Source of the DNA: a virus
Strand: one strand, 5' to 3'
Length of the DNA stretch: 47,742 bases
Virus record (IMG/VR): IMGVR_UViG_3300038336_000104
Coordinates: 1 to 47,742 of that record
Shown: piece after piece, positions 16,791 through 47,742 of the stretch
Position numbering within the stretch: the first letter of the stretch is position 1
Layout of the letters: the number at the start of each line of letters is the position of its first letter
Made by a program: the position numbers and the translations under genes
Notes under the pieces: model-generated
The model's database searches: none
Told to the model about the DNA's origin: nothing
The model's input: the letters and a program-made list of their open reading frames with translations, nothing else

Positions 16791-17000
16791 ATGAATTTTG
16801 ACAATGTGGGTCAAGCCATCTTAAAGGCGTTTGATGAGCTGAACCAAGACGAGCAATCATCTGAAATCATTGATTTGATTGATGGGGGTGAAAACGATGC
16901 TGAAATTAAGAAAGGTCTCAATCAAGCAATTGTGAGGCTTCGTGAACTCGGCAAAGAAGATGCAGCCAAAGACATCGAAGAAAAGATTAAAGGCTGGTAA
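16791..17000 (+). CDS. Small, highly acidic protein (69 aa)
   Basis: MNFDNVGQAILKAFDELNQDEQSSEIIDLIDGGENDAEIKK... is rich in Asp/Glu. The gene is bracketed by the nested repeats. Confidence 0.6.
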   Translation: MNFDNVGQAILKAFDELNQDEQSSEIIDLIDGGENDAEIKKGLNQAIVRLRELGKEDAAKDIEEKIKGW

Positions 17001-17073: not shown

Positions 17074-17102
17074 GGCGCATAAACACATTGTGTTTATGCG
17101 CC
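17074..17102 (+). terminator. Perfect 13-bp hairpin (ggcgcataaacac att gtgtttatgcgcc)
   Basis: Read directly. Only a weak T-run follows. Another 9-bp hairpin precedes it at 17044-17072. Confidence 0.45.
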
Positions 17103-17380: not shown

Positions 17381-17747
17381 GTACAAAAGTACATGCCAAA
17401 ATCGGCTTCGTAAAATTGTGGCAAACAGCCACATATATATAGTATTTATTTTTTTATTTATTTTTTTGTTAAAAAAAGACTTAATAAATAATAAGGTAAA
17501 AAAGAGTACAATCGTACGGCATGGCGCAAATGTTTAAATATCAACACAATACACCGTACTACTTAAATCGAACGTAAACGAACTTTTGTACACTTTCGTA
17601 CGATAAAAAAAAGACTTTTAAAAAGTACGAAAAAGAGTACGGATTACACACTTTTGTACTAAAATATAGTACGGTGTAATATACTGCATACCAGTTTATT
17701 AAGTACAGTTTTAGTACCCCTGTACACTTGTACTCTTTTTTTCGTAC
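17381..17747. repeat. GTAC-core repeat array: 16 GTAC tetramers, four of them as GTAC-N4-GTAC, beside an AT-rich tract at 17433-17497
   Basis: GTAC starts at 17381, 17389, 17506, 17514, 17556, 17588, 17598, 17625, 17637, 17656, 17669, 17703, 17714, 17722, 17730 and 17744. GTACGAAAAAGAGTAC (17625-17640) and GTACTCTTTTTTTCGTAC (17730-17747) form an imperfect inverted pair. Confidence 0.85.
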
Positions 17748-17791
17748 TTCTGGACCAAGTGTGTTTTGTAATTGTTTCACAAATGTTTTGA

Positions 17792-17872
17792 GCGTTCCCC
17801 TGCGGGTCAGGCTTTCCGCTATATCTTTCCCTGGCTCCACCAGGTAAAGGATGCCGCTGCAATCCTTAACGC
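17792..17872 (+). repeat. About 80-nt structured repeat element, copy 1 (second copy at 27571-27650)
   Basis: The 5' 37 nt match at 33 of 37 and the 3' 27 nt at 25 of 27. The central 16-17 nt differ, but both copies fold into a hairpin there. Confidence 0.85.
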
Positions 17873-17913
17873 GAAAATCTTCCTGGTAAAGGTTGTATTT
17901 CACATGAATTTTG

Positions 17914-17921
17914 TATGTTTG
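17914..17921 (+). promoter_or_regulatory. Candidate Bacteroidota-type -7 box TATGTTTG ahead of the late/head operon
   Basis: Exact TAnnTTTG match 43 nt upstream of the ATG at 17964. Confidence 0.4.
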
Positions 17922-17963
17922 CAGGGCAAGAAAGGTCGGCTTATCTGGGTTATACCAGAAATT

Positions 17964-18461
17964 ATGTCGAGTACAATCATTACAATCGATATTGAGGTAA
18001 AACCTTATCTTCGAAAATATCTTCTTTACAAATCAATAAACAAAACCTTTCCACTGCGTTTTCCAAACAGGCACGATTACAATCACATGCTTGTTAAGCT
18101 GGTTACTAACTATAACAGCCTTTCTAGTGTTCCAATTGCCGATAAAGAAAACGTGATGGAGTATTTCAAATCATCACAGCTGCAAAACGACAATAACGTT
18201 ACCATCATTCTTCCTTTTAATAGCCGGAAAGATATACGTTCTTACAACTATCTTTCGGTGAAGAGTAAAATACGGTTCCGGAAAGAAGTTCGAATCGACT
18301 TTAACTTCGAATTTTCAAGGGATCTGTTTCGCGGTTTAAAAGACGGCTTGCCCCGCACCGAGATCATAAATTTGTTTAAACGGAAGTACAATATTACTGA
18401 AGATGATCTTAAATCTGAGTCACTTTACCGGTTTTCTACACGAATGTTGCAGGAATTGTAG
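17964..18461 (+). CDS. Hypothetical protein, first gene of the head/packaging operon
   Basis: 165 aa from the internal ATG. The longer ORF-track start (17772) would read through the repeat element and the promoter box. Confidence 0.6.
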   Translation: MSSTIITIDIEVKPYLRKYLLYKSINKTFPLRFPNRHDYNHMLVKLVTNYNSLSSVPIADKENVMEYFKSSQLQNDNNVTIILPFNSRKDIRSYNYLSVKSKIRFRKEVRIDFNFEFSRDLFRGLKDGLPRTEIINLFKRKYNITEDDLKSESLYRFSTRMLQEL

Positions 18462-25271: not shown

Positions 25272-25860
25272 CAATAAATATGATGCATTGCTTTCGTTTA
25301 TCGAAACAGGTGCAGAAGGAGATCTTCCCACAGAAATGGTTGAATATCTTTCGACGCTGGAAATGATCCGTGGAATGCACATGCGTTACGAAAACCGCAG
25401 TGCCATCATTAAATTGCTACAGCTGCCACCTTATGCACTTTCTCCTTATCTGTCTAATAAGTATTACAGCGATGCCATCAATTTCTTTTACCTGGATAAC
25501 GCAATTAAAAAGCAAGCCTGGAGGAACATGTATGCCGAAATGCTTGAACGATCTGCCGAACTCGTTATAAAAACAGCCAAGACTTCCAAGGACCTGGATA
25601 TCTATAAAAACATTATCCTGGCTGCAGGTAATATGCGCCAGCTTAATGAAGCCGAACCTGATGATATCCCGGAAGAATTTTTCAAGAAACCTGTCAAGAT
25701 TTATACACTGGATCCTGAACTGGTTGGACGTACAAAAGCCAACAGATATGAATTAGCCAGGCACATCGATGGACTTGATATCCCTGAGCGTGAAAAATTA
25801 CGTGTGAAAGCTGATGCTATGATTGAGGATATTGATTTATTCCCTGAAGATGAAGATTAA
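25258..25860 (+). CDS. Packaging-module protein of unknown function (alternative small-terminase candidate)
   Basis: 200 aa from the ATG at 25258. Overlaps the previous stop by 14 nt and the terminase start by 11 nt. Confidence 0.55.
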   Translation: MEIDDNKYDALLSFIETGAEGDLPTEMVEYLSTLEMIRGMHMRYENRSAIIKLLQLPPYALSPYLSNKYYSDAINFFYLDNAIKKQAWRNMYAEMLERSAELVIKTAKTSKDLDIYKNIILAAGNMRQLNEAEPDDIPEEFFKKPVKIYTLDPELVGRTKANRYELARHIDGLDIPEREKLRVKADAMIEDIDLFPEDED

Positions 25861-27562
25861 ACTTGAAAAATCTGAGTTCCGTTTGACCAATTGGCTGAGT
25901 ATGGTCATCAATATGATTAGTCCCAAAAATCTATATTTGATTGTTGGTCGCGGAGCAGGTAAAACATCTGATATATTAGCCGGGCGAGCCCAGGATATAG
26001 TGCATGATATGCCAGGAGCTCCACTTGCTTTTGTTGGCGATACGTATACAAATCTACTGAAAAACACAGCCAAAACATTTATTGAAGGATGGGAACGTCT
26101 TGGTTGGATTGAGGCTGATGGAAAAACCAAAGGGCATTTTGTGGTAGACAAACAACCTCCTGATTATTTCAAAAAGCCATTTACAAAGTTCAAATCATTC
26201 AAACACACGATTTCCACTTTTACCGGTGCCAATTTTACACTTGTGTCAATGGATCGGCCTTCCAGTGGTGCCGGTAGCAACTATGTTCATGTGCTTGGAG
26301 ACGAAGTTAAATATTTCAAAAAGAATAAGATAAAGAAACTTACACCCGCCATCAGGGGAAGTATTCAGCGTTTCGGACATTCACCCTATTTTCGGGGACG
26401 TACTTTTACTACCGACTTTCCGGACATGAACCGAATAGATGAAGATGACTGGATCCTGGACTTGAAGAAAAACATGAACAAAGAGCAAATCAAATCGATT
26501 CTCGATTGTGCTTTTATTCTTAATGCTATCCGAATTGAATACCAACAGGCCGAACAAACTAAAAATGTAGAATTGCTTAAGAAAGTTGCTGTTAAGCTTG
26601 TCAGATGGGAGAAAAGGTATTACAAAATCAGGATGAATTCCACTTTTTTCTACATTGCTTCCAGCTTTGTAAATGCCGATATCCTTACCGAGGGCTATTT
26701 CCCTGAACAATTGGCTGATGGGAGCTTAGAGGACTATCTTACATCCATTCTTTCAATGAAACCTGCCATAGAAAAAGGCATGCGTTTTTATGGTAATCTT
26801 AGTGAAGCACACTTTTACCATGATGGATACAACTATTCCTATTATGATCAGTATGGTATTCGTGATAACATTACTCAAAGCAGTCGCGGCTTGAAGTATA
26901 TTCGTAAGCATGAGAAGCTTGAAACTGGTGTCGACTTTGGTAACATGTGTAGTATGGTAATAGGGCAGGAGCAATGGCCAAACTACCGGGTATTAAAAAA
27001 CATGCATGTGCTTACACCCGAGTGGATAGATCATCTGGCTAAAAATTTTATTGATTTTTTCCAACACCACGAGCGCAAAGAATTAGATATGTATTACGAC
27101 CGTTCAGGGAATGCATACAGTAAGCAGAAACAAGACTTTGCAACCAAGTTAAAGAATGCCATCGAGAAGCGTAAAGATGACTCAGGAAGTGTTAAATCAA
27201 CAGGATGGAAAGTTAATCTGATGAGTGTTGGTCAGGGCAATATCTCCCATCCTGAAGAGTTCGACCTGATGAACGACTTGATGGGTAACCATGTTACAGC
27301 ATTACCTAAGCTACTGATTGATCAGTTCGAATGCAAAGAGCTAAAGAGTAGCCTGGAAATGGCACCAGTCGAGAAGGATGCAAAGGGCAATATCAAGAAG
27401 GTCAAGAAGTCAGAGAAGTTCCCAGTCAAACGCCTGCCCATGGAATCAACCAATTACAGTGATGCATTCAAGTACCTGATGTGCCGTAAGAAGTACATGG
27501 ACATTGTTAAGGCACGTCAACAGATCAAGTTTAGTGATGTAGCTATACGTGAAATGAGGTAA
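25850..27562 (+). CDS. terL: Terminase large subunit
   Basis: Walker A-like LYLIVGRGAGKTS, Walker B-like HVLGDEV, about 570 aa with a C-terminal nuclease-size region. I prefer the ATG at 25850 (MKIKLEKSEF). Confidence 0.85.
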   Translation: MKIKLEKSEFRLTNWLSMVINMISPKNLYLIVGRGAGKTSDILAGRAQDIVHDMPGAPLAFVGDTYTNLLKNTAKTFIEGWERLGWIEADGKTKGHFVVDKQPPDYFKKPFTKFKSFKHTISTFTGANFTLVSMDRPSSGAGSNYVHVLGDEVKYFKKNKIKKLTPAIRGSIQRFGHSPYFRGRTFTTDFPDMNRIDEDDWILDLKKNMNKEQIKSILDCAFILNAIRIEYQQAEQTKNVELLKKVAVKLVRWEKRYYKIRMNSTFFYIASSFVNADILTEGYFPEQLADGSLEDYLTSILSMKPAIEKGMRFYGNLSEAHFYHDGYNYSYYDQYGIRDNITQSSRGLKYIRKHEKLETGVDFGNMCSMVIGQEQWPNYRVLKNMHVLTPEWIDHLAKNFIDFFQHHERKELDMYYDRSGNAYSKQKQDFATKLKNAIEKRKDDSGSVKSTGWKVNLMSVGQGNISHPEEFDLMNDLMGNHVTALPKLLIDQFECKELKSSLEMAPVEKDAKGNIKKVKKSEKFPVKRLPMESTNYSDAFKYLMCRKKYMDIVKARQQIKFSDVAIREMR

Positions 27563-27570
27563 TTATTTGG

Positions 27571-27650
27571 GCGTGCCCCTTCGGGTCGGGCTTTCCGCTG
27601 TATCTTTTCCTTGCTTCGCCGGAAAAGGATGCCGCTGCAATCCCTCACGC
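27571..27650 (+). repeat. About 80-nt structured repeat element, copy 2, starting 9 nt after the terL stop
   Basis: See 17792-17872. The closing stem gcgtG/Cacgc differs from gcgtT/Aacgc in copy 1 by a compensatory pair change. Confidence 0.85.
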
Positions 27651-27947
27651 GGTTGGAAAAACATGGTTACTATATTAAAGAAGATACTACTAACCACCAG
27701 ACCGACCAACTTAAACAAAAATTTTAAAATAACTGTATAACGTACTGTTTAGATGCACGTTGTCATATATCCAATAAAAAACGCAATATGCAAAGGCATA
27801 TCATGGGCAGAGCGGGTCGGTCTGAAAGCAGGCTTTCACACTTTCCCGAAAGTGTGATAAAGGGCAAAAAGCCTCATTTACAGGAATAATAATCAATTTG
27901 ATTTTGATTTTTGATTCTTAACATGATTGAAATATTTGTAAACATTT

Positions 27948-28062
27948 AAAAACGGCTACCTTTTCTTTTCGGAAAGAAAAGGTAGACCAAAAGAAAACAG
28001 GCCCCCAAGGAATTTTTGCTTTTATGGTATTCAGTATAAATGGGGTGGGGGCGTTACCTTAA
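27948..28062 (-). ncRNA. Candidate minus-strand small RNA (promoter box to intrinsic terminator, no ATG)
   Basis: The minus-strand -7 box TAACTTTG is the + strand caaagtta at 28070-28077. About 100 nt without an ATG follow. The unit ends in a perfect 13-bp stem with a 4-nt loop (27956-27985) followed by TTTTT on the minus strand. Confidence 0.4.
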
Positions 28063-28284: not shown

Positions 28285-28620
28285 ATGAAAAAATCAACAA
28301 CTGACGTTAAACAAAAGCGTCGTGAATTAAGTGCTTTATCCAAGGTGATTAAGGCACAGATCCATTCAGGGGAACTTGATGCAGGATCTGTTAACGAAGG
28401 ATTGATTGAGGTGTATTCCGGAGGAGAAGAAATTGAATTCAACACCTTTCATCAATGGAAAGACAAAGGGCTTTCGGTGAAAAAAGGAAGCAAAGCTTAC
28501 CTGGTATGGGGAACACCCAGGCAGGTACCAGTTCCTGATGCTGAAGATGATGATGAAATGAAGTTCTGGCCAATTTGCTACCTGTTTTCAGCCAATCAAG
28601 TTGAAAGGAGGCAGTCATGA
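28285..28620 (+). CDS. ArdC N-terminal-like (ssDNA-binding, anti-restriction-type) small protein
   Basis: 111 aa. FNTFHQWKDKGLSVKKGSKAYLVWG resembles the W.TF.Q...G..V+KGEK motif of the ArdC N-domain. Only part of that domain is present, so the function is tentative. Confidence 0.45.
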   Translation: MKKSTTDVKQKRRELSALSKVIKAQIHSGELDAGSVNEGLIEVYSGGEEIEFNTFHQWKDKGLSVKKGSKAYLVWGTPRQVPVPDAEDDDEMKFWPICYLFSANQVERRQS

Positions 28621-28811
28621 CACGATCAATTAAAGTGCAATCGCATGTTATTCCTCATTCATTCAGATCACCAATGAAGATTTTTAGTCAATTGTTGCTA
28701 AAAGGAAAATGGTTGTCTGAATCAGGGTTTACTCCTGGTGATCAGGTATCAATTGAGGTGACGCCTAACCAGATAATCCTCCGTAATATTAAGAAAGGAG
28801 GCCCGAGATGA
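28617..28811 (+). CDS. SymE-family (AbrB-fold) toxin-like protein
   Basis: LLLKGKWLSESGFTPGDQVSIEVTPNQIIL aligns with the E. coli SymE core [30 protein letters not shown]. ATGA overlap with the upstream gene. GAAAGGAGG lies 6 nt upstream of the ATG. Confidence 0.8.
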   Translation: MTRSIKVQSHVIPHSFRSPMKIFSQLLLKGKWLSESGFTPGDQVSIEVTPNQIILRNIKKGGPR

Positions 28812-28951
28812 TTGATGCTTTTGTAGAATTTCTCGATTCTATCTACTATGAAGGATATGCGATGCACACAGCTTTGGATGATCCGGGTAGGTTCACTTTT
28901 GAATTTAACGAATTCATTGAAAATTACGGTTCAGGACTTAAAAGGTCCTGA
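28808..28951 (+). CDS. Small acidic protein (47 aa, below the ORF-track cutoff)
   Basis: The ATG at 28808 overlaps the SymE-like stop (ATGA). The same GAAAGGAGG box lies 6 nt upstream. The gene ends inside a strong terminator. Confidence 0.5.
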   Translation: MIDAFVEFLDSIYYEGYAMHTALDDPGRFTFEFNEFIENYGSGLKRS

Positions 28952-28962
28952 ACCTTTTTTTT
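28928..28962 (+). terminator. Rho-independent terminator
   Basis: ggttcaggac N7 gtcctgaacc followed by TTTTTTTT. Confidence 0.85.
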
Positions 28963-28965
28963 GTG

Positions 28966-28973
28966 TAACTTTG
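28966..28973 (+). promoter_or_regulatory. Candidate -7 box TAACTTTG for the XRE-family gene
   Basis: Exact TAnnTTTG 25 nt before the ATG at 28998. Confidence 0.45.
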
Positions 28974-28997
28974 AGCTTTTAAACCAACTAGGTGGCT

Positions 28998-29228
28998 ATG
29001 CTGATTAATAATAAAAAGTATGTTCAAGCCCGGGAAAACATTTGTAGGCAGCTTCGGGAGACTGTTTTGGATAACAAGATATCAGTTGATGAGATTGCTT
29101 TGAAAACTGGATTAGTAAAATCAAACGTTAACAGGGTTTTAAATGGGATGTATGCTCCGAAATTGGACCATGTTATTGCTATTGCTGATGTTATCGGGTT
29201 TAAATTGACTATACAAGAGGTGCCATGA
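28998..29228 (+). CDS. XRE-family HTH transcriptional regulator
   Basis: 76 aa. ISVDEIALKTGLVKSNVNRVLNG...KLDHVIAIADVIGFKL is a classic Cro/C1-type HTH. Confidence 0.75.
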   Translation: MLINNKKYVQARENICRQLRETVLDNKISVDEIALKTGLVKSNVNRVLNGMYAPKLDHVIAIADVIGFKLTIQEVP

Positions 29229-47293: not shown

Positions 47294-47742
47294 ATGAAAA
47301 AGACCATATTAATATTAGTTACCATGGTGCTGTTATCCACCACAGGTACATCGCAAACCATTAAATCGCAGATATCGGCCACGGCAGACACCCTTTGGCG
47401 ATTTTTGAAAAACAACAACGGCTCAGGCACAGCAACCTTCGGTTTCATCACCGGAGCCGACACTGTATTTGTGCAAGGCGACGGCACTAACTTACGCATT
47501 ATCGCTGATTTTTTAAAAGCGCCCACTATTTTAATGGATACCAACCAAATAAAGCAGGTTGACACGGCTGTTGATACACATGATGCAGTGCCGTTTTTTC
47601 AGATGCTCGATTCAATCCTTGCCTCAGCATTCGATCCGTCAGCTTTACTTGATTCACTTGCACGGCATTTGGATAGCTTACAAAAGCATAGAATTGATAT
47701 TAACGCCATCGAAAATGCTACCGAAGCCGGTACAGCACAAGG
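47294..47742 (+). CDS. Tail fiber / receptor-binding protein, 5' portion (open to the window end; continues at base 128 of the circular genome)
   Basis: ATG 10 nt after the previous stop. MKKTILILVTMVLLSTTGTSQ...LDSLQKHRIDINAIENATEAGTAQG has no stop before the window end. The last 127 nt are identical to bases 1-127. Confidence 0.7.
   Translation, partial: MKKTILILVTMVLLSTTGTSQTIKSQISATADTLWRFLKNNNGSGTATFGFITGADTVFVQGDGTNLRIIADFLKAPTILMDTNQIKQVDTAVDTHDAVPFFQMLDSILASAFDPSALLDSLARHLDSLQKHRIDINAIENATEAGTAQ
47616..47742. repeat. Terminal direct repeat, copy 2 (identical to 1..127)
   Basis: Exact identity read directly. Confidence 0.95.

Follow-up and report, generated by a model that had tools for sequence, protein, structure and literature searches.

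The window analysed here, the whole 47,742-nt stretch of DNA that makes up IMG/VR virus record IMGVR_UViG_3300038336_000104, carries two copies of a structured element as direct repeats on the + strand, at 17792-17872 (81 nt, copy 1) and 27571-27650 (80 nt, copy 2), with a spacing of 9779 nt. The large open reading frames (ORFs) of the window are nearly all on the + strand, and positions 1-127 recur exactly at 47616-47742. From this terminal redundancy the window is a circular or complete phage genome of ~47.6 kb, and the simplest account of the 127-nt repeat is that the assembly of a circular or circularly permuted genome overlapped itself. A blastn search of GenBank phages with both flanking regions found nothing, so the phage has no close sequenced relative there. 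As the original prediction from the sequence had proposed, the copies bracket the head and packaging block, in which lie a gene for an S49 protease, several phage-family ORFs and terL, the gene for the terminase large subunit (TerL). The 570-amino-acid ORF labelled terL had no match in Pfam, in PHROG or, as a single sequence, in the PDB. A profile of 15 homologues matched the ATPase domain of the P74-26 terminase large subunit (Table 1), a weak match by which the earlier label was kept as a probable one. The core of copy 2 begins 8 nt past the TAA of this ORF (27560-27562).

The two copies are 86% similar. The 37 nt at the 5′ side are identical at 33 positions and the 27 nt at the 3′ side at 25, while the central 16-17 nt are dissimilar yet hairpin-forming in each copy. 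These values reproduced what had first been reported for the pair, and the compensatory change described in the closing helix, P1, was likewise seen in the sequence, copy 1 having GCGTT/AACGC and copy 2 GCGTG/CACGC. A second compensatory difference, previously unscored, lies at the base of the long hairpin P3, where copy 1 reads cAGG...CCTt and copy 2 cGGG...CCCt. Shared sequence also extends past the earlier boundaries by 5 nt upstream (TTTGA in copy 1, TTTGG in copy 2) and by a G downstream; outside TTTGR...CGCG the copies have nothing in common. A covariance model of the family, R1 (see below), found exactly two copies in the window, the next-best place scoring 10 bits. Because the scores of R1 (Table 1) and of the Rfam model Flavo-1 are far above that value, the match between the copies is not due to chance. 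No common ORF embeds both copies. The peptide motif KDAAAI, which the original prediction had linked to Bacteroidota annotations, does read from the conserved AAGGATGCCGCTGCAATC box, but it falls in frame 2 in copy 1 and in frame 1 in copy 2 and is a translation artefact rather than a real peptide. The element accounts for spurious "...KDAAAI..." ORF extensions, for example window ORF 17772-18461.

Both copies are members of Flavo-1 (RF01705) and do not represent a new family. The full-length Rfam model matched them on the minus strand with 51.5 bits (copy 1) and 51.6 bits (copy 2), with E ~2e-8, the gathering score of this curated covariance model being 42 bits; it also matched the homologues in L159 and L007, two phage contigs considered below. 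Flavo-1 was discovered computationally in Flavobacteria, other Bacteroidetes and a few Spirochaetes and was assigned no function (Weinberg et al. 2010, PMC2864571). The window copies share with it the AGCGG/CCGCU boxes and a long hairpin that has two internal loops, both symmetric (3x3), and the taxonomic range of the relatives collected here (Bacteroidota, some Spirochaetota) is the same. Rfam, however, covers P3 alone and on the opposite strand, whereas the present unit extends to a three-way junction with TTTGG, P1 and P2. The range is also widened here by tailed phages, single-stranded DNA (ssDNA)-phage-like contigs and plasmids of Bacteroides and of gammaproteobacteria, in the last of which a long insertion in P3 evades the Rfam model. 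The element does have homologues with covariation; that they belong to a known family of dispersed repeats of cellular genomes, plasmids and phages, and not to one peculiar to this phage, had not been foreseen in the original prediction.

Relatives were gathered by exact-pattern scans, which gave 8 and then 26 viral contigs from IMG/VR and at least 120 loci from the GTDB genome set, the latter spanning Flavobacteriia, Bacteroidales, Chitinophagia, Sphingobacteriia and Spirochaetota, where a genome held several copies. About 170 relatives were compared in all, and covariation was evaluated on about 100 aligned relatives. The complete Flavo-1 unit, as this comparison shows, is a Y-shaped three-way junction of 85-160 nt. 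A conserved TTTGG is followed by the 5′ strand of the 5-bp helix P1 (GCGYN/NRCGC), the hairpin P2, a C, the hairpin P3 (base NNG/CNN), a T and the 3′ strand of P1. P2 is free in both sequence and length, and the length of the distal P3 stem varies freely between 20 and 130 nt. A single ~20-nt unit is directly repeated in both arms of P3, so that the invariant CCGCT boxes of the arms stand opposite each other, with symmetric internal loops between them. An exact 5-bp P1 was present in 90 of 131 copies, compared to 10-14 of 131 for shifted control pentamers. In a MAFFT alignment of 71 sequences with 22 designated pairs, 95% of the cells were paired and the covariation score was 0.43, versus 0.14 for shuffles and 0.08-0.15 for slid partners. 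R1 was built from this alignment, and in 29 viral and plasmid copies outside its training set 91.5% of the cells were paired, with change on both sides in 18 of the 22 pairs. The P3 helices were 93-100% paired and included double-sided changes; the L159 orthologue, for instance, shows a C-G to T-A double change within an otherwise invariant central helix. P1, P2 and P3 all covary across the aligned relatives, which argues for selection on structure, as had been supposed from the two window copies.

Table 1. Parts of the two Flavo-1 units, neighbouring features of the window and partial variants on other replicons. Positions refer to the window unless a contig is named.
Feature	Position	Strand	Support or remark
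Copy 1, full unit (TTTGA, P1, P2, P3, P1′)	17787..17873	+	R1 72.2 bits, E 1e-17; Rfam Flavo-1 on minus strand 17877-17801
Copy 1, P1 5′ strand GCGTT	17792..17796	+	pairs with 17868-17872 AACGC; P1 covaries in the family
Copy 1, P2 small hairpin CCC-CTGC-GGG	17797..17806	+	sequence; P2 covaries
Copy 1, P3 long hairpin	17809..17866	+	portion covered by the Rfam Flavo-1 model
Copy 1, CCGCT boxes 17816-17820 and 17854-17858; distal stem CCTGG/CCAGG	within P3	+	
Copy 1, P1 3′ strand AACGC	17868..17872	+	
Candidate late promoter, TATGTTTG, Bacteroidota-type -7 box (TAnnTTTG)	17914..17921	+	41 nt past copy 1
Probable terminase large subunit gene (570 aa)	25850..27562	+	15-homologue profile against PDB 4ZNJ/4ZNI, E 6e-5
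Copy 2, full unit (TTTGG, P1, P2, P3, P1′)	27566..27651	+	R1 78.8 bits, E 2e-19; Rfam Flavo-1 on minus strand 27658-27580
Copy 2, P1 5′ strand GCGTG	27571..27575	+	pairs with 27646-27650 CACGC
Copy 2, P2 small hairpin CCC-CTTC-GGG	27576..27585	+	
Copy 2, P3 long hairpin	27588..27644	+	CCGCT boxes 27595-27599 and 27632-27636; distal stem TTTTCC/GGAAAA
ArdC N-terminal-like (ssDNA-binding, anti-restriction) small protein gene	28285..28620	+	Pfam ArdcN 22.6 bits (equal to the cutoff), E 1.3e-4
Partial variant, Enterobacter plasmid	L249 4995-5095		
Partial variant, Acinetobacter plasmid	L250 5000-5180		
Partial variant, Dulem virus 63	L243 1560-1650	-	

Gene context was more informative on the functional strand than folding energies or wobble counts, and on mobile elements it favours the + orientation of the window. 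About 17 of the 24 viral copies listed sit 19-122 nt past a co-oriented ORF, and the plasmid copies with CCGCT boxes are all co-oriented with their neighbouring genes. Around cellular copies the neighbour configurations were ++ in 27 cases, +- in 18, -- in 15 and -+ in 7, with the element closer to the stop codon facing it; the chromosomal pattern is a 2:1 sense bias with depletion of divergent promoter gaps (7/67). A conserved T.G pair (51 of 71 sequences) is a wobble pair on the + orientation only and becomes a C.A mismatch on the Rfam strand. An initial count of 75 versus 10 wobble pairs was traced to one conserved position, and strand assignment from wobble pairs was abandoned. The sign of the GC skew around 91 copies was split 46 versus 45 and gave no replication-strand bias.

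Flavo-1 is a dispersed intergenic repeat common to chromosomes, plasmids and phages. Chromosomal copies mostly sit just past stop codons, among housekeeping genes such as those for thiolase, fructose-bisphosphate aldolase, signal peptidase and transporters. When the ORFs within 2.5 kb of 120 cellular copies were clustered, no family was present in more than 4 loci, and regex scans of all the fetched loci for ORFs of REP-associated tyrosine transposases (RAYTs; HUH/Y motif) returned nothing real. Two IMG/VR contigs carry paired copies on the same strand, 6-9 kb apart (L155, 1598-1669 and 10303-10371; L149, 4713-4873 and 10636-10708), each copy 18-33 nt past a stop codon; their gene content, with a type I restriction R subunit and outer-membrane beta-barrel proteins, looks cellular and not phage.

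Plasmid copies were found by blastn against PLSDB. At least 19 Bacteroides/Phocaeicola plasmids carry a full-length unit right after a resolvase gene, and in the two that were inspected an ArdC gene (ArdcN and zincin domains) lies about 350-530 nt downstream of the element. Conjugative and mobilizable plasmids of gammaproteobacteria have the unit with an expanded P3, in a setting of anti-restriction, RadC and DinI-like genes: a Moraxella plasmid copy scored 63.8 bits with R1, and copies on 49 Vibrio plasmids, any one of which has 6 places at most, scored 32-40 bits. On the V. tasmaniensis plasmid L242 (20002-20580 and 36938-37520) the element is located inside a repeat of ~580 nt, 88% identical between its copies, at the head of duplicated gene blocks, each with a hypothetical gene, DUF7659 and a lytic transglycosylase, the first block also with a small "type I restriction subunit M"-like gene; the same plasmid holds an integrated filamentous-phage-like segment (zot, replication endonuclease). 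In three small ssDNA-phage-like viral contigs the element lies 102 nt upstream of a gene for a G2P-type rolling-circle Rep. Finally, the TTTGG-P1-P2-junction part alone, with a different P3, was found on an Enterobacter plasmid, an Acinetobacter plasmid and the inovirus Dulem virus 63 (Table 1). These failed the full R1 model and were not accepted as full members. They share TTTGGGCGTK-CCCC-TTCG/TGC-GGGT-CGGGC, and the 3′ part, CCCT-MACGC, was seen in the two plasmids and not found in the inovirus. The two plasmid variants adjoin SprT-like/ArdC-type or ArdA genes. Such partial variants suggest a superfamily wider than Flavo-1.

In the phage itself, copy 1 is followed by a candidate late promoter, in agreement with the earlier placement of the copy ~40 nt upstream of a late-operon -7 box; 41 nt separate its end from TATGTTTG. 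At 17964, where homology with L159 resumes, the first of the conserved late genes begins. Further upstream, the last + strand ORF ends at 17000 and is followed at 17074-17102 by a perfect 13-bp hairpin (GGCGCATAAACAC..GTGTTTATGCGCC) with a T-rich tail, which looks like the canonical terminator of the upstream operon. The non-coding region 17600-17770 is dense in short GTAC-containing repeats (AGTACG, TGTACT, AGTACGG and others) and is 85% conserved in L159; this stretch, ahead of the late operon, may have a regulatory function or serve as an origin. An imperfect inverted repeat of 46 nt joins 17472-17517 with 17722-17767.

The first sizeable gene after copy 2 encodes the ArdC-N-like protein, for which PHROG also gave a match to an anti-restriction protein (E 3e-4). 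L001, L004 and L007 likewise have this gene after the element; a general link between the element and ArdC-N in phages was not retained, as it holds in 4 contigs only. Between copy 2 and this gene, a 66-nt non-coding block at 27759-27823 (TTGTCATATATCCAATAAAAAACGCAATATGCAAAGGCATAT...) with the palindrome TATGCAAAGGCATA is conserved in L159 and, at 85%, in L160, in the midst of unalignable intergenic DNA, and may be an operator or promoter. A 75-nt block at 27937-28011 is 95% identical to L007 despite unrelated terL genes; the perfect 13-bp hairpin at 27956-27985 (CTACCTTTTCTTT-TCGG-AAAGAAAAGGTAG), followed by a T-run on the minus strand, is likely a terminator for leftward transcription. Right after the ArdC-N-like gene there is a 64-amino-acid ORF (28617-28811), with a precomputed Pfam SymE_toxin match in an identical ENA contig, and then an HTH_3 gene (28992-29228). 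Together, 28617-29228 may be a small toxin or regulator cluster that opens the early region.

The history of the two copies was followed in related phages. Among 80 IMG/VR loci with a TerL 39-95% identical to that of the window, the element occurred only in the closest, L159 (95%), directly after terL. The L159 copy is of a different P3 subtype with compensatory changes in P1 and the central helix, and its flanks are ~89% identical to those of the window. In L160 (72% TerL identity) an unrelated plain hairpin stands in place of copy 2 and the intergenic region is unalignable. L159 is without copy 1, although its flanks there are 84-93% identical: 857 nt (L159 1541-2397) replace 196 nt of the window (17768-17963) between the GTAC-rich region and the first late gene. 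This insert contains an AT-rich ORF of ~230 amino acids and resembles a moron slot directly upstream of the late promoter. None of these contigs offers a precise empty site, L160 being unalignable, the whole slot being replaced in L159, and L007 having no close relatives. Copy 1 is closer to copy 2 (86%) than copy 2 is to its L159 orthologue, which fits a recent intragenomic copy or an origin from a shared donor pool. By these comparisons copy 1 is a second copy specific to the lineage, and the variable slot that holds it lies just ahead of the predicted late promoter.

In 13 IMG/VR loci and in the window, about 11 distinct phages, the element follows terL. About 10 of the contigs with this arrangement form a separate phage clade in which P1 covaries; its TerL is 22-28% identical to that of the window and 34-59% identical among the clade's distinct contigs. 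L007 belongs to this clade and shares with the window the element, the 75-nt block and the ArdC-N-like gene (76%) but not terL, its TerL being 23% identical. Because sharing with L007 begins downstream of terL in this way, copy 2 lies exactly at a mosaic junction, and it appears to have come with, or to mark the edge of, an early module placed after terL. The linkage of the element to terL was rejected as evidence for a role in packaging, since it is mostly explained by one phage clade and by module exchange. A deletion between the copies would take out the head and packaging genes, and the original prediction had suggested that the repeats could mediate it. Exact-protein look-ups gave only near-identical contigs of ~47.7 kb, and among these 12 contigs, collapsed as same-neighbour and with one long contig displayed, which retains the arrangement, no deletion variants were seen.

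We tentatively propose, as the most likely role of the element, that it punctuates transcription units by its structure, in the single strand of coding sense. It would fold in that strand, most simply in the transcript, and a protein might read the conserved junction and the CCGCT loops while the peripheral helices remain free to vary. The recognition of a folded strand by a protein is suggested because junction and loops are conserved whereas the helices vary freely with compensation. Punctuation is suggested because the element sits past stop codons, at module edges and sense-oriented on mobile elements. In this role the element would form, protect or process the 3′ end of the message before it and insulate the unit that follows.

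A number of observations weigh against this attribution. The RNA-level role is inferred from position and orientation, and the strand evidence rests largely on the one conserved T.G position, a strand-neutral recount of wobble pairs having revealed no clear asymmetry besides it. The RNA folding energy puts the Rfam strand ahead by about 2.3 kcal/mol, and the stability of single-sequence folds is unexceptional (z from -2.1 to +0.5); the case for structure rests on covariation. About 22% of the chromosomal copies are antisense to both adjacent genes, and in the Flavobacterium psychrophilum transcriptome Flavo-1 matches are sense or antisense to transcribed regions, with many outside (PMC9723704). 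The weak point of the punctuation reading is copy 1, which precedes the predicted late promoter and follows the canonical terminator at 17074-17102 at a distance of about 690 nt; being between the two, it may fall outside any abundant sense transcript. A canonical terminator is already present upstream of the element on the Moraxella plasmid. The element itself is not a canonical intrinsic (Rho-independent) terminator, and the suggestion of one in the original prediction fails in that form. No U-tract follows it (T frequency 6-25% at +1 to +10 past P1), and a terminator-like scan, which does find ordinary hairpin-plus-T terminators elsewhere in the phage (e.g. 17074-17102), reported neither the P1-closed structure nor P3, its sole match in copy 1 (17802-17819) being a different 5-bp pairing. 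Finally, 79 of the 80 TerL-related phages are without the element, which is therefore dispensable for this phage type.

The neighbours on plasmids would suit a different substrate. Here the Y fold would form in ssDNA and be recognised by RNA polymerase or primase, as a single-strand initiation (ssi) or Frpo-like promoter, for starting complementary-strand synthesis or early anti-restriction expression, and the phage copies would be inherited from such modules. We consider this unlikely. The plasmid neighbours of the element are genes of anti-restriction and establishment: on Bacteroides and Phocaeicola plasmids ArdC, on the Moraxella plasmid an Antirestrict-family gene, and on Vibrio plasmids RadC and DinI. 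Variants with P1/P2 only adjoin ArdA in Acinetobacter and a SprT-like gene in Enterobacter, and in the window and three other phages an ArdC-N gene follows the element. For both copies, the DNA minimum-energy fold of the Rfam strand is a three-way junction. In 5 of 6 plasmids, with the position of the origin of transfer (oriT) inferred from relaxase operons and not mapped, the element lies on the leading (non-relaxase) side of oriT and the inferred transferred strand has the Rfam orientation; the V. tasmaniensis F-type plasmid breaks this rule, and in 4 of the 5 fitting plasmids it is inseparable from sense orientation to the adjacent genes. The position upstream of the G2P-type Rep gene, like that of the partial copy in the zot-rep intergenic region of an inovirus, would suit such a signal, but the ssDNA-phage contigs show the opposite orientation in the presumed virion strand. 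There is no shared motif with the published Frpo set (PMC11541004) and no match in E. coli genomes or their plasmids, and inspection by eye revealed no -35/-10 or -33/-7 arrangement conserved across subtypes. A tailed double-stranded DNA (dsDNA) phage has no obvious need of such a signal, and the chromosomal copies lie among housekeeping genes, including convergent gaps, with unbiased GC skew. A broader version, which we also rate as improbable, takes Flavo-1 as the Bacteroidota branch of a wider, undescribed Y-shaped superfamily, a new class of single-strand initiation or promoter signals of mobile elements, distinct from Frpo. Such a superfamily would have a shared core of TTTGGGCGTK, a CCCC-loop-GGGG hairpin, CGGG...CCCT and MACGC, and it would act in plasmid leading regions before ArdA/ArdB/ArdC-type genes and beside Rep in filamentous-type phages. 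The chromosomal copies would then be spill-over, and the phage copies would mark where the ArdC-N early unit and the late unit start.

Dispersal could also be the whole explanation, at about the same low likelihood, if the element is a selfish repeat akin to repetitive extragenic palindromes (REPs) or transposable elements of the miniature inverted-repeat kind (MITEs), copied in trans by a host or mobile-element enzyme (e.g. a HUH/RAYT-type nuclease acting on folded ssDNA) and tolerated in harmless places, with a phage role limited to homology for module exchange. Several copies occur per assembly (at least 5 in Foetidibacter luteolus, at least 13 in one metagenome-assembled genome of a termite-gut spirochaete), P3 subtypes are specific to the genome, and the two copies of this phage are more alike than orthologues. 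Presence or absence differs among close phages, the checked chromosomal copies adjoin housekeeping genes, and divergent promoter-containing gaps are depleted, as given above. The conserved TTTGG, which abuts the 5′ end of the element, is reminiscent of IS200/IS605-type elements, whose target or cleavage sites are fixed. Bacteroidetes RAYTs of subclass 2.6 are flanked by "atypical" structured repeats that share AGCGG and AATCC, although these published repeats are simple hairpins, unlike the Flavo-1 unit (PMC6006769), and MITEs common to Bacteroidota hosts and their viruses have been reported (PMC11602168). Against copying of this kind, no transposase or RAYT-like ORF was found among the 120 cellular loci listed, and the flanks show no target-site duplication and no terminal inverted repeats besides the 5-bp P1. 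The core is conserved across phyla, whereas a REP and its RAYT co-evolve; a phage clade with TerL identities down to about 35% has kept the element, with compensatory changes; and P2 differs among same-genome copies with near-identical P3, which is unexpected under simple copy-and-paste. Two further readings are very improbable. A free-standing small RNA gene on the minus strand would agree with the strand of the Rfam model, with its better RNA energy and with the purine-rich internal loops (GNA/GGA) there. However, the large phage ORFs lie essentially all on the + strand, the minus-strand copies lack a framing promoter or terminator, copies on mobile elements are almost always antisense to the Rfam orientation, and the conserved T.G becomes a mismatch. 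Equally remote is a site in duplex DNA, with the two direct repeats of the CCGCT box as the binding place of a regulator or recombinase, or acting as a cruciform. The P3 arms, as direct repeats of a 20-nt unit with internal dyad symmetry, and the position of the element at module junctions would fit, but an operator needs no complementarity of the arms, P1 and P2. Intramolecular folding is indicated instead, because the arms, P1 and P2 covary strongly while the length of the distal stem varies freely.

Flavo-1 has been in Rfam since 2010 without known function or informative gene context, and the phage and plasmid copies now supply such context. New here are a unit larger than the Rfam model, an orientation relative to genes that is fixed on mobile elements, and the recurrence beside anti-restriction genes and at mosaic junctions. 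The strand and boundaries of the Rfam model may need revision. Given the phage and plasmid contexts, the function of Flavo-1 becomes directly testable on tractable Bacteroides plasmids or in Flavobacterium strains. For phage annotation the element is useful as a marker of Bacteroidota/Spirochaetota host range and of module boundaries.

Among known systems, REPs with their RAYTs are similar in being dispersed, structured and extragenic, in lying close to the 3′ ends of genes, whichever the orientation, and in having a short conserved sequence at the 5′ foot. Flavo-1 differs from them by the absence of a GTAG/CGTC tag (its 5′ flank is TTTGG and then GCGYN) and of a nearby RAYT gene, by its three-way junction in place of a simple hairpin, by a core conserved across phyla and by its presence on phages and plasmids. 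The minus-strand origins of ssDNA replicons (hairpins B/C of Ff phages, ssoA of rolling-circle plasmids) consist, like Flavo-1, of two adjacent hairpins with conserved unpaired bases, and in the ssDNA-phage-like contigs Flavo-1 is likewise intergenic beside the Rep gene; it has, however, no sequence in common with them (neither RSB nor CS-6) and is also found in dsDNA phages and chromosomes. MITEs such as the Correia elements are, as Flavo-1 is, small non-coding intergenic repeats of hosts and phages (PMC11602168), whereas Flavo-1 is without long terminal inverted repeats, target-site duplication or a known parent insertion sequence, and its copies diverge by compensatory changes instead of being near-identical. 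Compared with the Frpo/ssi promoters (Masai & Arai 1997; Samuel et al. 2024, PMC11541004), Flavo-1 has no sequence similarity or evident -35/-10 mimic, is abundant in chromosomes, and is much shorter than the Frpo sequences of 300-400 nt (Samuel et al., supplementary table, PMC11541004). It resembles them in being folded and non-coding, in sometimes occurring several times per plasmid, and in its position upstream of anti-restriction and other establishment genes.

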